Part shown: positions 3,001 to 24,000 of the stretch, one piece after another
Layout: each line of letters starts with the position of its first letter
How positions within the stretch are numbered: the stretch's first letter is position 1
NCBI GenBank assembly: GCA_003135555.1
Contig: PLCF01000031.1
Coordinates: 576-45,518, forward strand
DNA from: Vulcanimicrobiota bacterium
GTDB lineage: Bacteria > Vulcanimicrobiota > Vulcanimicrobiia > Vulcanimicrobiales > Vulcanimicrobiaceae
Direction: 5' to 3'
DNA length: 44,943 bases
Made by a program: the position numbers

Positions 3001-6000
3001 AGACGACGCCGATGGTACGTGCCTTGATCGCCAGCGGAACGCAGATGATCGACCGCAGGCGCAGCGCGCGCACCGAAAGGTTCACGTTGAAGCGCGGGTC
3101 TTGTTGGGCGTCGGTGGTGACGATCGGCTCGCCGGTTTCGAACACTCGCCGCACGGTGGTCTGCGAAGGCCGCATGTCGACGCCCTCGACGGTCGCGCGG
3201 TCGATCCCGTAGGTCGTCGTGAGCTCGAGCTTGTCGTCGGCGTTGGCGACCATGAGGAAGCCGCGTTCCGCTTTCATGACCTCCACCGCCGTGTCGAGCA
3301 CGCTGCGCAGCACGACGTCGAGCTCGAGCGAGGAGTTGACCGTCTCGGCGACGCGCCCCAGCGTGCGCAGCTTCGCCAGCTCGCGCTCGGCGTTGGTCGA
3401 CGATGCCGACAGGCGGCTCGTGACGGCGGCGCGTTCGAGCGCGAGCCGCTCGAAGGCCCGCTCTGCGCTCGCGACCGCTGCGACCAGGGTGGGATCGCCG
3501 CTCGCCGCCGCGCGAGCGCGCAGCGCCTCGAGCGGGTCGGGGGCGGCCTCGGCGGCGTTCATCGGCGATGCCGCCGGCGGCCGGCCATGGCGGGACGCGC
3601 GGGATCACATCGCGGCAACCCGAGGGTCATGCGCGAAGCGGACCATGGGGCCATGGCCTTGGATCCCATCTCTCCAATCATCGGCACGGCCCTGGCCGCG
3701 CGCGAGCACGTCGAACGGTTGGCCCCCGAAGCGGCACGGGACGAGCGCGCCGCGGCTCGGCTGGCCCGGGCAGCGCTCTTCGAAGAGGCGCTCCTGGGCG
3801 CGGTCAAAGCGCACCTGGGCGAGCTGCACACGGTGGCCAAGTGAGCGAGTTCGACCTGCTGTCGATCGCCGCCGACGGGATGAGCGTCCAGCGGACCCTC
3901 CTCGACGTCGCCGCGCGCAACGTCGCCGCGGCGCAGGCCTCGACTCCGGACCACCCCTATCCGCGTTTCGTCGCGCGCTTCACGGCGCGCGCTTCGGATG
4001 ACGGTTTCCCCGGCGTTCCGGACGACGAGGATGCCGGCGGCGACGACGCGCGCAGCGACCTCGTGGTGGCCGCACGGTCGGGCGAAGGCGCCGACGCGCT
4101 CACCGAGATGATCGCCGTGCTCGAGGCGCAGCGAGCGTATGAGACCAACGCCAGCGTATTCGACGTCGGCAAGAAGCTGGCCGAGCGCACGCTCGACGTC
4201 GGACGGCTCTGATGCAGGTCGAGTTGCTCGTCCCCGACGCGCCGGCACCGCGCGGACCGCGGCCGGCGACCGGCCCGGCGAACGCCTTCGCGCAGCTCGT
4301 CGACGCGGCGGGCGCGCTGCTCGAAAACGCAGACCGGGCCGAGGCGGCGTTCGCCGCGCACCGCGGCGGCTTGCAAGAGATGGTCGTCGAGCGTGCGCGC
4401 GCCGATATCGCGGTGCAGGTGGCGGCGACCGCGGCCCAACGCACGGCGCAGTCGCTCGCGACGCTGTTGGGAATGCAGATCTAACCCATGCCGGCGGCGG
4501 CGTTCCTCGCGCGGCTGCGTGCGGCGTCGCCACGGGCGCGCCTGCTGGGCGCGGTTGCCGCTGCCGCGCTGTTGGCGGTCGCGGCGTTCGGCTTCGTCGC
4601 GTCACGCGACACCCGCGTCGCGCTCTTCGCCACGCCGTTGCGCGCAGATCAGCTGGCGGAAGTCGAAGCGCGGCTCGCGGCGTGGAACGTTCCCTATGCG
4701 GCCGCCCCCGACAATCTGCGCGTCGACCGAGCCAAGCGCGGCGAGCTGTTGCTCAAACTCTCGCTCGCCGGCGTCCCGCACCCGCACCTCGCGGGCAGCG
4801 ATGAAGCCCTCGCGCATCTGGGTGCGCTGACGCCGCAAGCCGTCCTCGAAGCGCAGACGCGCGACGCGCTGGCGGCGGATCTCGCGCTGGGCCTGCGCGG
4901 TTTGGATCGTGTCGCCGACGTGCGCGTGGTGATCGCGCCGTCGAGCGGAGGCGTGTACGCCGACGAGACTCGTCGTGACGCGAGCGCGAGCGTGCGCGTA
5001 ACGCTCGTTGCGGGGACGCGGCTCTCGGCGCGCGCGGTCGCCGGGATCAAGGCCTTCGTCGCCGGCGGGGTACCCGGCCTCGACGCGGAGCGCGTGACCG
5101 TGCTCGACGACCGCGGGCTGGCGCTCGACGCGGACGGCGGCGAAGACGCGCCCGACGTGCAGGCAGCGCTGCAGAGCGCGCTCGACGCGGCGTTCGGCCC
5201 GGGCGCCGCCATCGTGCGCGTGCACCGCGAGCCGGTGGCCGAACGGCGCGACGTGCGCGACGTGCACCGTGCGGCGCTGGGCGGCAGCATCGCGCGGAGC
5301 AGCAGCGACGAGCGCTACGCGTCGACTGCGAAAAAGTACTCCAAGAACAGCACGACCGAGGACCGCGGCAGCGAGACGCGCGAGGAGCGCCGCGTCACCG
5401 CCGCCGGCGCAACCGCGCGCTTGACGGTGGCGATTTTCGTCGACGCGTCGCGCGGACTCGATCTCGCCAAAATCCGCGCGCTCGCCGCCGCGACGGTCGG
5501 GACGCGGCCCGAACGCGGCGACGTGCTGAGCGTTGAAGCGGTGGCGTTCGGCGAGGTCGCGCGAGCGCCTCAAGCGCACGCGCCGGGTTGGGTGCTCGCG
5601 TTGGCCGGACTCGTCCCGCAGGTGCTCACCGCCGCTGCGCTCGTGCTGGTGGTCGCGCTCGCGGCGAAACCCTTGACGACGGTCGCGCTGCGCATCGTCG
5701 AGTCGGCGTCGGCGCGCAGCACGGCGCGCGCCGTCGCCGGGATCCCGCCGGCGCGCGTGCGCGGCGCGCTCGACGGCGAGCCGCCGCACGTGGCGGCCGC
5801 GATCATCTCCGCGCTTCCGGCTTCGACCGCGGCGGCGGTGCTGGAACTCTATCCGGCCGATCAGCGCGCCGCGATCGTGCGGCGTCTCGCGCGTGACAAT
5901 GCGTCGCTGGTCCCGCCGGCCGAGGAACTCATCGGTGAGTGCTGACTTCGTGTCGCTGGCCGACGTGCTGCGCGCCGCGGCCGTCGCCCCGCCTGCGCCG

Positions 6001-21000: not shown

Positions 21001-24000
21001 GAATCGCGCGAGCGGGCCGTGGCCGCCGGCGCGCTGACCTTCGATGCCATCTCGATCGTGGTCTCGCACCTCGCCGAGACCGCACGCGCGCATGCGGCCG
21101 ACCTATTTGGGCGTCAGGAGTTTGCAACGCTCGTCGAGCACTTGCGCGGCTCGGTGCCGGCGGTCGTGAAGGATGTCGGTGAGGTTCTTCCAGTCGGTGT
21201 CGCGCACCGCGCCTTCGTCCACCTGTTGCGCGAGCGCGCGTGGCCGCGCGATCCGGTCGCCGCCTTCGAAGCCATGGTCGACGCCGCGGCGACGACGCGC
21301 GACCCGCGCGAGCTAGCCGAGGCCGTGCGCCGCGTCATCGTCCCGCAGCAGCTGCGCCGGGACGGCGTCCGTGCATTGCGACCCTTGATCGTCGCGCCGG
21401 CGTTCGAGGCCGAGCTGGCGCGAACGTGGTCGCCTGAGGCTGGACCGGCGCCCGATCCGCGCACGGCGTTGCACGTGCGTACCGAGATCGCGCGCTACGC
21501 CGCCGACCCGAGTTGCGCGCCGCATGCGATCGTCGCAACCGCGGCGTTGCGCCCGCTGCTGGCCGAGCTGCTCGAACGCAGCGTCCCGGCCGTCGCGGTC
21601 TACTCCTATGCCGAGCTCCCGCCCGAGGTCGCGCTGGAACCCGTCGCCGTGCTCGACGCGCCGGCGGCGGTCGCGGGGGCGTTTCCGGCGGTTTAGCGAA
21701 GCGGGTCCGAGCGCCGCCACGAGGGAGTTTCGATGATCGCTCCGAGCCCGCCGGGAATCCCGCGTACGATCTTCGAGCCCGAGCACGCGACGTTGCGTGA
21801 CGCGATGCGGCGTTTCTGCGAACGCGAGATCGCCCCGTTTCATGACGCGTGGGAAGCGCAGGGCGTGGTCCCGCGCGCGATTTGGCGGCGCGCCGGTGAG
21901 CTGGGCTTTTTGTGCATGTCGCTGCCGGCGGAATACGGCGGCGCGGACGCCGACTTCCGAGCCTCGGCCGTCTTCTCCGAGGAGCTGGCGCGCGTCGGCG
22001 CGACCGGTCCGGGCTTCTTGCTGCAGACCGACATCGTCGCGCCCTACATCCTGCACTACGGAACAGCCGAGCAGAAGCAGCGCTGGCTGCCGCCTCTGGC
22101 TGCAGGCGAGCTCATCAGCGCGATCGCGATGAGCGAGCCCGGCGCGGGGAGCGACCTCGCGGGGATCAAGACGCGGGCCGACCGCGTCGCCGGCGGCTAC
22201 GCGATCACCGGAGCCAAGACGTTCATCACCAACGGCGTCCTCGCCGATCTGATCGTCGTCGTCGCCAAGACCGATCCCGGCGCGGGCAGCCGCGGGGTCA
22301 CGCTTTTCGTGGTGGAGCGCGGCGCGCCGGGCTTCTCCGGCGGGCGCCCGCTGCGCAAGGTCGGCCTCAAGGCGCAGGACACCGCGGAGCTGACCTTCGA
22401 CGGCGTGCGCGTCGGCGACGATGCGGTGCTGGGCGCCGTGGGCGGCGGATTCAAGCTGCTCATGAGCGAGCTGGCGCAGGAACGGCTCTCGATCGCCGTA
22501 ACCGCCGTAGCTGTCTGCGAAACGGCGCTCGAACAGACGATCGCCTACTGCGCCGGGCGCGAAGCGTTCGGCGAGCGCGTCCTCGATTTCCAGAACACCC
22601 GCTTCACGCTCGCAACGTTGCGAGCGCAGGTCGCGATGGCTCGCGTCTTCGTCGACCGCTGCATCGAGCTGCACTGCGCGGGCGGGCTCGACGCGACGAC
22701 GGCGGCGATGGCCAAGCTCGAGACGACCGAGTTGCAGTTCCGCGTCCTCGACGCCTGCGTCCAGTTGCACGGCGGCTACGGTTACATGCTCGAGTACCCC
22801 ATCGCACGCGCCTGGGCCGACGCGCGGGTGGCGCGCATCTACGGCGGCTCCAACGAGATCATGCGCGAGATCATCGGCCGCTCGCTCGAGGGCGGACGTT
22901 CGTGATCGCGGAGAAGTCCGCACCCGTGCTGGCCGGGCTGATGATGGACCGCTCGCTGCAGATCTCGCGGCTGATCGACCACGCCGCGCTGTGGCACGGC
23001 GACGTCGAGATCGTCACCCAGCGAACCGGCCTGCCCGATCAACGCTCGAACTACCGCGAAGTGCGCGCGCGCAGCGCGCAGCTCGCGCACGCGTTGTGCC
23101 AACGGCTCGGCGTCGTAGCCGGCGAGCGCGTCGCGACCTTCGCGTGGAACACGCAACGTCACCTCGAGCTCTACTACGGCGTCTCGGGGATCGGCGCGGT
23201 GCTGCACACGATCAACCCGCGGCTGTTCGCAGCGCAGATCGCGTACATCGTCAACCACGCGCGCGACCGCTTCATCTTCCTCGACGCCGACCTCGTGCCG
23301 GTGCTCGAGCCGCTCGCGGCGCAGCTGCCGCACGTCGAAGGCTACGTCGTGCTGTGCGCCGAGAACGACTTGCCGCCGACGTCGCTGCCGGGCGCGCTGG
23401 CCTACGAGACGCTCATTGCCGGATTCCCCGACGACATCGTCTGGCCCGAGCTCGACGAACGCACGGCGTCGTCGCTGTGCTACACCTCGGGGACGACCGG
23501 CAACCCCAAAGGCGTGCTGTACGCGCACCGCTCGACGCTGCTGCACACCTTCGCGCAAGCGGCGTCGTGGCAAGCCGGCGCGGGTTCGCAGACCTCGATC
23601 CTCCCGGTGGTTCCGCTGTTTCATGCCAACGCGTGGGGCCTGCCGTATTTAGCGCCGATGCAGGGCTCGAAGCTCGTCTTCGCCGATCCGCACCTCGACC
23701 CGGCGGCACTCTACGACGCGCTCGAGCGCGAGCAGGTGACGCTGTCCTGCGGCGTGCCGACCATCTGGCTGCGGCTGCTCGAGCACCTCGAGCGCAACGA
23801 CTTGCGCTTCTCGAGCCTCAAGCTGCTGGGCGTCGGCGGGGCGGCGCCGCCCCGCTCGATGATCGAGGCCTTCGAGGTGAAGTACGACGTGCGTGTGATG
23901 AACGCGTGGGGGATGACCGAGACCAGCCCGGCGTGCACGTTCGGGATACCGAAAGCGGAGCATGACGTGCTGCCGCAGCGAATCGACTACAAGACGTGCG

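Follow-up and report, generated by a model that had tools for sequence, protein, structure and literature searches.

A second flagellar-type export gene set in Vulcanimicrobiota, separate from the flagellum and proposed to encode a non-rotating type III machine

Gene content of the second export cluster

The window, that is, the whole stretch of DNA analysed here (44,943 nucleotides of contig PLCF01000031.1), contains a divergent set of flagellar-type export genes encoding rod subunits, FliF fused to a FliG-middle domain, FliH and FliI, a transglycosylase, a short FlgE, FliM and FliN, FliPQR, FlhB, and FlhA, with window proteins rich in Gly, Ala, Arg, and Pro. Every gene that the genome-wide survey's note had named was found in its place and on the plus strand (Table 1), but the list was incomplete, as a FlgB-like ORF, a FliK/SctP-like ruler, and an eroded FlgJ at a second locus had been overlooked. 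That second locus, flgF-flgG-fliA on contig C58, was present as reported, and so was a separate complete flagellar set on contigs C94 and C19, including MotB and flagellin. Comparisons were made with loci of the same order, with the class of the window genome (window class), and with another class of the phylum (other class).

Table 1. Genes of the export cluster, with positions in the window
Feature	Position	Strand	Evidence or remark
FlgB-like proximal rod subunit, eroded to ~63 aa	3653..3844	+	assigned mainly by synteny
FlgC rod subunit	3841..4212	+	PF06429 (Flg_bbr_C), E 4.5e-6
FliE rod adaptor	4212..4484	+	orthologs match PF02049 in 15/17 loci
FliF MS-ring protein fused to FliG-middle-like helical domain	4488..5945	+	PF01514 (YscJ_FliF), PF08345 (FliF_C), PF14841 (FliG_M)
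FliH, shortened	5935..6417	+	PF02108, weak, E 0.001
FliI export ATPase with Walker A/B, catalytic Glu, Arg finger	6414..7655	+	Pfam and NCBIfam profiles
Lytic transglycosylase (putative wall opening)	7655..8263	+	PF01464 (SLT), E 9e-31
Aspartyl protease, probable passenger	8181..9818	+	PF13650
FliK/SctP-like length ruler	9892..10420	+	interrupted in this genome only, by a frameshift near 10230-10260
Short FlgE-type axial subunit, 241 aa, without D2 domain	10422..11147	+	PF22692
FliM, eroded, C-terminal SpoA domain recognisable	11144..11953	+	PF01052, E 7e-12; TIGR01397
FliN	11950..12207	+	TIGR02480, over cut-off
Insertions around fliP, four unrelated genes	12235..17564		Fic protein (12235-13362, -), MTHFR, alpha/beta hydrolase, short-chain dehydrogenase; Pfam
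FliP export gate	13521..14180	+	PF00813, E 6.5e-71; TIGR01103, over cut-off
FliQ	17642..17908	+	PF01313
FliR	17905..18612	+	PF01311
FlhB with autocleavage Asn-Pro site	18629..19639	+	PF01312
FlhA export-gate nonamer subunit	19636..21696	+	PF00771 (FHIPEP), E 1e-190

Homologs of all eight core genes of non-flagellar type III systems (NF-T3SS; J, N, Q, R, S, T, U, and V) are present in the window. Export gate, ATPase, MS ring, flgC, and fliE were found there, whereas the evidence for flgB was limited to synteny and a weak match of profiles: the FlgB-like ORF, which opens the cluster in 14 loci, had no Pfam match, and its profile gave a weak alignment (P 0.023) to the C-terminal helix of FlgB from the other class. 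The best match of FlgC was TIGR01395, under its cut-off, and the window FliE itself had no Pfam match. The FliG_M match (E 4e-8) lies in a single ORF with FliF, for which TIGR00206 outscored SctJ; a single-sequence model of this fusion was poor overall (pLDDT 51) with a C-terminal domain at about 80-90, and the best Foldseek matches of this low-confidence model were FliF rings.

Motifs of the ATPase, FlhB, FlhA, and FliP were intact. Those of FliI were conserved in 18-19 of 19 loci, with one exception at a locus truncated at its edge, and the FlhB NPxH site occurred in 20/20 (NPTH in 17). The window FlhA keeps its core motifs at 38% identity to the flagellar FlhA of the same genome. FliMN_C was matched twice in the cluster, in FliM and FliN, and the FlgE-type protein is about 270 aa long in the other class, against 521 aa, with D2, for flagellar FlgE. 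The transglycosylase was seen in 17 of 19 order loci, and the other class has one at the same position. Spacing at the insertion places around fliP differs from locus to locus.

The ruler gene is one open frame in 16 relatives and two frames in the window. PF02120 was matched in 4 of these 16 (best E 4.4e-5), the ESM Atlas features resembled those of HpaP/SctP (0.92-0.93), and a FliK-like profile-profile comparison was weak (P 0.083). At the second locus, the eroded FlgJ lies between flgG and fliA (weak FlgJ-like profile-profile comparison, P 0.0015), and an FlgG2-type match of at least 49% identity was present in 57/60 genomes. The aspartyl protease, which the survey had listed as a system gene, was rejected as a core part and is better regarded as a passenger: it was patchy in the order (13 of 19 loci seen), was not seen in the other-class clusters, and has several paralogs in the genome.

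Retention without motor and filament

The survey described the set as kept across the order Vulcanimicrobiales. Retention in the order was borne out, but this understates the range, as the system is phylum-wide. Among order genomes at least 90% complete, an FlhA2-type protein (at least 55% identity) was found in 106/120 (one of the 106, G099, is unpublished); a clear FlhA2 was missing from the other 14, and it is split or missing in some genomes. An FlhA-family gene occurred in 147 of the 151 phylum genomes, against flagellin over the cut-off in only 50, so that flagellar gene annotations overpredict motility in this phylum; MotB was found in 55 (five of them weak), and three families had no flagellin (f3, 0/10; f5, 0/17; f12, 0/5). 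The phylum has a cultured, non-flagellated diderm member (PMC9758169).

Gene order was shared by 18 of the 19 order loci seen, with one inversion, and also by 12 other-class loci; one order locus had no fliI and two no transglycosylase. The other class's cluster is far less eroded than that of the window class. The FliF-FliG_M fusion with loss of the FliG N- and C-terminal domains, described by the survey as a trait of the system, is real in the window class but represents later erosion in one class.

The reported lack of stator, P/L rings, hook junction, and flagellin was confirmed in the cluster or in the non-flagellated carriers tested. MotA/MotB were not found within the cluster, nor was an outer-membrane ring or secretin; FlgI, FlgH, FlgD, and FlgK were each found in 0/5 non-flagellated carriers tested; FliG_C was not found in 3/3 own-class genomes; and FliJ, FliO, and the FliG N- and C-terminal domains were not found in window-class loci. 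In the other class, FliG has both of what we take to be the torque arginines replaced in 9/9 sequences.

These data bear on two flagellar readings of the set. One, highly improbable, is that it serves as a helper of the canonical flagellum, borrowing its stator and flagellin. Both sets do share one genome, and FliN2 is apparently more conserved in flagellated genomes, but most carriers have neither flagellin nor MotB, the torque arginines are lost, and, as the survey had claimed for relatives without any flagellum, the set is retained in the closed, non-flagellated genomes G001 and G010. The other, that it is a slowly decaying second or lateral flagellum, could draw on the long branches, the biased composition, the ruler frameshift in this genome, and the split or missing FlhA2 genes. 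We consider it very unlikely. Genomes that have no true flagellum also have no motor, hook cap, junction, or flagellin, and the true flagellum was lost far more often than the second set. Unlike a decaying set of pseudogenes, the genes have open frames across two classes, intact catalytic motifs, and dN/dS well under 1.

For 14 cluster genes and two genome pairs, dN/dS ranged from 0.09 to 0.49. FliN had values of 0.09-0.12. The window proteins evolve faster than their flagellar counterparts, and constraint on FliH, FliI, and FliM is relaxed in the window class, with values of 0.30-0.36 for FliI and 0.40-0.49 for FliM, against 0.12-0.13 and 0.13-0.14 for the flagellar proteins. Three RNA assemblies of the same study gave short foreign pieces only, which speaks neither for nor against expression. 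The survey's view of a non-motile, flagellum-derived type III device stood, as the set is kept without flagellin or stator, with intact motifs and under purifying selection.

Phylogenetic position

Mixture-model trees were quick searches with support given by SH-aLRT only. Window-class rows were included in the FlhA mixture tree with its AU test and in the FliPQR+FlhB check, and were left out of the six-gene tree, the FliPQR+FlhB tree with its support of 99, one of the FlhA analyses, the ATPase tree, and the AU tests against the phylum's own and the Bacillota flagella; the window FliI was omitted from the mixture ATPase trees because it was pulled to the outgroup. The window FlhA grouped with the other class's cluster (98), and its union with the phylum's own flagellar FlhA was rejected (AU test, p 1e-5). 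In the FliPQR+FlhB check, window rows were not resolved with the other class.

The system grouped with injectisomes against flagella in the FlhA tree (93-97), for FliPQR+FlhB (99), and in the six-gene tree, there against all sampled flagella (SH-aLRT 100). Its core proteins fall outside the Sct clade (100) and adjoin it, with the Myxococcus NF-T3SS as the nearest named branch. AU tests rejected its joining either the phylum's own flagellum (p 0.008) or Bacillota flagella (p 0.011), and descent from the phylum's own flagellum is thus rejected.

The survey's statement that the device is independently derived was not established, as trees that include the less eroded other-class orthologs unite the system and injectisome proteins to the exclusion of the flagellar proteins. 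We give slightly better than an even chance to an origin as sister lineage of the injectisomes. A quite possible, though less favoured, alternative keeps the same function and proposes that a flagellum was independently converted into a secretion device for a second time, with convergence or long-branch attraction behind the grouping. It agrees with the Firmicutes-like flagellar gene order, the kept rod, C ring, and sigma-28, the NCBIfam scores of the core proteins (flagellum-like, not Sct-like), and the support of only 59 for the sister grouping with the ATPase alone. In addition, motility was lost in both lineages and could drive similar changes, and seven unnamed FlhA-like proteins inside or beside the joint clade, near its base, imply that sampling matters. 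Against it, separate gene sets give the same split, both obvious flagellar parents are rejected, and the other-class proteins sit on shorter branches than several flagellar proteins, and these show no attraction to the Sct clade. Other histories are improbable.

Proposed working and comparison with known systems

We consider it likely that the window carries a class-specific, eroded version of a non-rotating type III export machine that is ancient, phylum-wide, and separate from the flagellum. Gene content, distribution, motifs, purifying selection, torque-residue loss, and tree position are observed, whereas assembly, secretion, cargo, and the role of a candidate pilin are inferred. In such a machine, FliPQR, FlhB, and FlhA would form the gate within the FliF ring, whose fused FliG-middle domain may anchor a slim FliM/FliN platform holding the FliH-FliI ATPase. 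FliE, FlgB, and FlgC, together with FlgF and FlgG from the second locus (with its eroded FlgJ cap and sigma-28), would build a rod through the wall with the help of the transglycosylase, and the short FlgE-type subunit would lengthen this rod. The FliK/SctP ruler and the self-cleaving FlhB would then turn export over to the late substrates.

For the other class, the probable late substrate is a Hrp-pilin-like filament subunit of 80 residues. At least 7 other-class loci encode this protein directly behind flhA, and it was found in 48/58 other-class genomes, mostly with 2-9 matches each, some of them longer paralogs; G157 has three identical tandem copies. It had no Pfam match, 0 matches in a PDB sequence search, and only weak, unrelated NCBIfam matches. 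Its Atlas features match HrpA pilin (0.91, 0.90) and an HrpE-like protein (0.87), with the HrpA label on just 23-24% of the members of those clusters, and the AlphaFold model of an 81-aa protein is one long helix. The Atlas match is a lead. The candidate pilin was found in 0/92 own-class relatives and not in the window genome; therefore, the window-class device is probably needle-less and would export into the periplasm or via a short conduit.

That in the window class nothing is exported, the ring, rod, and transglycosylase forming an envelope-anchored scaffold or wall-opening device (e.g., a landmark or appendage anchor), seems unlikely. It would fit that the candidate pilin, FliJ, FliO, and FliG N/C were not found in the class's loci, that FliH/I/M are relaxed, and that no outer-membrane ring lies in the cluster. 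However, the class retains the ruler, the FlhB cleavage site, the catalytic residues of the ATPase, and the sigma-28 locus, and these imply that export is ordered and includes a late phase.

The proposed export machine shares with the bacterial flagellum its gene order, presumably that of the fla/che-type operon, and most basal-body families. It differs in that non-flagellated carriers are without stator, flagellin, FlgD, FlgK, and P/L rings, its FliG is without torque arginines or cut to the middle domain, and its FlgE is without D2. With injectisome and Hrp-pilus systems it shares, by gene content, a non-motile export gate, a ruler, and a switch, and with the latter the small, helical, multicopy protein of the other class with HrpA/HrpE-like features. 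Unlike injectisomes, it has no secretin in the cluster, keeps flagellar rod genes, and its core proteins fit flagellar profiles better; no translocon or effector was identified for it.

Buchnera basal bodies result from recent reduction of an endosymbiont's only flagellum, whereas this system forms its own lineage and is found alongside an intact flagellum in a phylum of free-living bacteria. The likeness, again by gene content, is the keeping of basal-body and export genes without motility; in Buchnera, both structures are reported to be retained and expressed although the cell is non-motile (PMC8109811). In Lysobacter enzymogenes, a flagellin-less flagellar T3SS is described as secreting non-flagellar proteins (PMC7688988). 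This is a co-option in a single species, with FlgD kept, and differs in that from an ancient second system dedicated to export.

A flagellar origin by way of a non-motile stage is generally assumed for the injectisome. The gene trees place the machine beside the protein-injection systems of other bacteria, so that it may represent a living intermediate between flagellum and injectisome. A tentative reading, which we put slightly below an even chance, is that the phylum preserves such an intermediate, sister of all injectisomes, with motor and flagellin lost, a small Hrp-like pilin gained, and rod, MS ring, and C ring kept, the window class being further reduced and needle-less. If the system does branch beside injectisomes with rod, FliF, FliG/M/N, and sigma-28 but no motor or flagellin, the order of the transition steps becomes directly testable; if independent, it would still show that a flagellum was turned into a secretion device a second time, across a whole phylum.

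The needle-less T3SS* of Myxococcus, the earliest survivor known, is described as already without rod genes, its systems lacking FlgBCDEK and FliEG, and as a type III core without secretin, needle, or translocon in the earliest-branching injectisome group (PMC3459982). Both have a type III export core without secretin in the cluster, but the system described here keeps FliE, FlgB/C/F/G, a short FlgE, FlgJ, FliM/N, sigma-28, and all or part of FliG, with a full FliF in place of SctJ. Abby and Rocha define NF-T3SS by at least 7 of 8 core genes, the absence of flgB, flgC, and fliE, and a secretin in the cluster (PMC3459982); the core genes agree with this definition, while flgC and fliE are present and a secretin is not in the cluster.

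In prey lysis, Myxococcus T3SS* is reported to act together with a Tad-like pilus (PMC12075869). A link between the cluster and a nearby Tad locus was considered here and rejected as not conserved, with no secretins near the cluster in G001 and G010. The genomes checked, among them G001, G010, and G122, do have secretins, but a long way from the cluster; in the window, the Tad locus lies 9 kb from the cluster and, by Pfam, includes the window's secretin.

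Gene content of the export cluster and its partner locus

Pfam and NCBIfam scans of the window bore out the gene set and position that the genome-wide survey's note had assigned to the second export system (Table), together with its flgF-flgG and FliA-like sigma genes on C58, another contig of the genome, and the separate, complete flagellar set on contigs C94 and C19, which holds a distant paralog (26–48% identity) of each core protein of the cluster. The fliF product carries a Pfam match to the FliG middle domain at its C-terminus (E 4e-8), and fliP is flanked by four inserted unrelated genes. 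The genes named in that note stood, but its parts list was incomplete, having overlooked three components. The first ORF of the cluster is FlgB-like, with a weak profile match. Directly 5' of flgE lies a FliK/SctP-like ruler gene, resembling HpaP/SctP in the ESM Atlas (0.92–0.93), which is broken by a frameshift in the window's genome and forms a single open frame in 16 relatives, four of them with a FliK domain match. Finally, an eroded FlgJ gene, kept in 26 of 30 loci, is found between flgG and fliA; the same interval encodes a clear rod-binding domain in the second class of the phylum (hereafter, the other class).

Coordinates of the features (window positions unless a contig or locus is named)
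Feature	Position	Strand	Content
Export cluster	3653–21696	+	flgC, fliE, fliF, fliH, fliI, lytic transglycosylase, aspartyl protease, short FlgE/F/G-type gene, fliM, fliN, fliP, fliQ, fliR, flhB, flhA
FliN2 (cluster FliN)	11950–12207		
Inserted gene between fliN and fliP	12235–13362	-	Fic domain; lower GC
Tad pilus locus, complete	30479–39663		TadE/G, secretin, Flp pilins, prepilin peptidase, CpaB, fused CpaE-CpaF ATPase, TadB/C
Type IV toxin-antitoxin-like module	41798–43332		AbiEi antitoxin and nucleotidyltransferase (DUF6036) pair
ORF after fliA2	C58, L004:11349–11650		about 100 aa
Other class, protein 3' of flhA (examples)	L093:4201–5238 (G157); L066:175–414; L064:303–542		about 80 aa
Other class, genes 5' of flgF-flgG-flgJ-fliA	L379:7466–9224; L380:7382–9069		second FliK-like protein, small FlhB-C-like protein

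The Tad locus lies 9 kb downstream of the cluster, an adjacency not kept in the genomes G001 or G010. The ORF that follows fliA2, the sigma gene of the second set, recurs in 22–23 of 30 order loci and has no Pfam match.

Conservation and selection within the order

Among order genomes at least 90% complete, 106 of 120 (including the unpublished genome G099) showed a match to FlhA2, the cluster's FlhA, at 55% identity or more; in the other 14, the match was absent (8), limited to fragments (3), of flagellar type alone (2) or unclear (1). From 19 genomes, 20 loci were fetched; of the 19 loci on which counts were made, 18 were colinear and one carried an inversion, with fliI missing from one, the transglycosylase from two and the protease from six. 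For FlgG2, encoded at the partner locus, 57 of 60 genomes gave a match with an identity of at least 49%. The FlhA2 and colinearity counts sustain the proposed conservation across Vulcanimicrobiales, the actual range being phylum-wide. One genome of 1.9 Mb (G026) holds two divergent copies of the cluster (L051 and L052), one partly inverted and the other without fliI in the locus.

Of 19 loci, all keep the Arg finger of the FliI ATPase and 18 keep its Walker A and catalytic Glu, the exception being a locus truncated at its margin; FlhB NPxH, FlhA RFTLD and FliP DGW are each found in 20 of 20 loci. Pairwise dN/dS against two same-genus genomes ranged from 0.09 to 0.49 for 14 cluster genes, versus 0.09 to 0.29 for 10 true flagellar genes in the same genome pairs. 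Judged from these ratios, the constraint on the cluster is real but looser than on the flagellar genes, above all for FliI, FliH and FliM. A decaying lateral flagellum, which the survey's note had kept as a residual option, is countered by the catalytic motifs and the dN/dS values, and the cluster is not in decay. Its proteins are rich in Gly, Ala, Arg and Pro. FliN2 showed the lowest dN/dS of the cluster; its likeness to the window copy was 69–95% in flagellated genomes versus 54–65% in most non-flagellated ones (83% in G001), relatedness being uncontrolled, and the true flagellum may use it as well.

Range across the phylum and the form in the other class

An FlhA-family match was detected in 147 of 151 phylum genomes, versus 50 with flagellin above the cut-off and 55 with MotB (weakly in five), in agreement with the claim that relatives lacking a flagellum retain the system. 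In the sister order (f3), the same eroded set recurs, divided among separate loci; FliF there has a weak FliG-middle match, and flagellin was found in none of 10 genomes. The other class was sampled by 58 genomes, 19 of them with flagellin, and its protein source names include Ca. Xenobium and Ca. Bruticola. Its cluster (12 loci, some partial) is far better preserved, comprising flgB, flgC, fliE, fliF, whole fliG, fliH, fliI, fliJ, transglycosylase, fliK, a 270-aa flgE, fliM, one or two fliN, fliO, fliPQR, flhB and flhA, with flgF-flgG-flgJ-fliA at a second locus. The window holds the most eroded form and the other class the one with most evolutionary signal, the FliF-FliG_M fusion being a later erosion within the window's class.

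FlgI, FlgH, FlgD and FlgK went undetected in five carriers without flagella, drawn from both classes, while the positive controls gave hits, and FliG_C was found only in the two other-class genomes; together with the flagellin and MotB counts, this supports the described lack of a FliG torque domain, P/L rings and flagellin. In other-class FliG, both torque-arginine positions were substituted in 9 of 9 sequences, and rotation is therefore unlikely even for the well-preserved form.

The other class also encodes a conserved protein directly 3' of flhA (Table), whose profile matched 48 of its 58 genomes, usually with more than one match per genome and frequently in tandem arrays (G157 carries three identical copies), and none of 92 own-class relatives, nor the window's genome. 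It had no Pfam or PDB sequence match, is predicted to fold as one helix, and lies near HrpA pilin clusters in the ESM Atlas (0.91 and 0.90; HrpA on 23–24% of members), with an HrpE-like one at 0.87. Because of its gene amplification, position and Atlas match, our best guess is a pilus subunit, a candidate to be taken as a lead. A conserved ORF of about 100 aa precedes the gene, and downstream there is often a longer protein that terminates in a paralogous domain.

The system is real, selected and ancient, and its most likely role is that of a non-rotating type III exporter. The parts and their conservation are observed; their working order is modelled on the assembly of flagella and type III systems. 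Rod subunits would leave through the gate with the help of the ATPase and cross the wall where the transglycosylase and FlgJ clear the way; the ruler, together with FlhB cleavage, would switch substrates, and sigma-28 would activate late genes, the late cargo in the other class probably being the small candidate pilin. The window's class looks needle-less. On the outer-membrane side there are no P/L rings, and the secretins are located elsewhere in the genome.

Other FlhA-related genes were also observed. In genomes of the other class (G121, G122, G134, G147 and G161; L196–L217), between one and about 10 additional genes match FlhA over its cytoplasmic half alone and may be added cargo-docking modules; some of these genomes also encode complete, stand-alone FlhA paralogs, which fall with the cluster type in trees. 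Another cluster of flagellar type (G121:C52, L392–L393) includes FlgD, FlgH and FlgI, and its FlhA groups with the phylum's true flagella; this genome is 97% complete, yet matched neither flagellin nor MotB.

Relation to flagella and injectisomes

In a 145-row FastTree, cluster FlhA from the window's order grouped with that of the sister order and of the other class (99), apart from the phylum's flagellar FlhA and adjacent to injectisome SctV (95). Quick LG+C20 PMSF searches (SH-aLRT support) recovered window-type and other-class FlhA as a group (98), and constraining window-type FlhA with the phylum's own flagellar FlhA was rejected (AU p 1e-5), in agreement with the separate FlhA2 clade previously reported. 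A split of this system plus injectisomes from flagella was supported at 93–97 by FlhA, 59 by the ATPase alone, 95 by both, 99 by FliPQR+FlhB and 100 by six genes (2030 columns; 29 rows, namely 4 other-class, 6 Sct and 19 flagellar). AU tests rejected joining the other-class set with the phylum's own flagellum (p 0.049 for FlhA, 0.008 for FliPQR+FlhB) or with Bacillota flagella (p 0.011). In an F1-rooted ATPase tree, other-class FliI and SctN both nested within flagellar FliI, which agrees with a root among flagella. On balance, the sister placement beside injectisomes is somewhat more likely than an independent derivation. However, the trees are all quick searches with thin flagellar sampling, profile scores are flagellum-like, the FliI and gate proteins of the window sit on very long stems, and convergence from shared motility loss could produce the same grouping. 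Therefore, of the "independently derived" non-motile device proposed earlier, the non-motile export system stands, whereas its independent origin becomes the somewhat less likely reading.

By their defining features, the system is neither a motile flagellum nor an injectisome. The accessible text of PMC3459982 defines non-flagellar type III systems by a secretin and the absence of flgB/flgC/fliE, and gives as their earliest branch the Myxo systems, which lack rod genes, unlike the system described here; PMC12075869 describes, in the part available, the needle-less Myxococcus system. For a cultured phylum member, strain WC8-2, the available part of PMC9758169 reports a diderm without flagella or a flagellin gene, and fliN is the sole entry under flagellar terms in its supplementary table. 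The phylum is not mentioned in the accessible text of PMC13277936. No description of such a system was found in the literature searched; most subscription papers are unsearchable, and absence from print is unproven. In the accessible data of PMC9259500, TXSSCAN on an ocean member of the phylum labelled one full-length gene T3SS_sctV (status "no_decision"); the gene lies 21 genes away from a fliI/sctN gene and is separate from a flagellar-type copy, and we infer that it belongs to the cluster described here.

Finally, a 259-row FlhA tree placed three unnamed FlhA-like proteins inside the joint clade of this system and SctV and four beside it (P0058, P0075, P0123, P0054, P0129, P0101 and P0111); similar systems may occur in other phyla.
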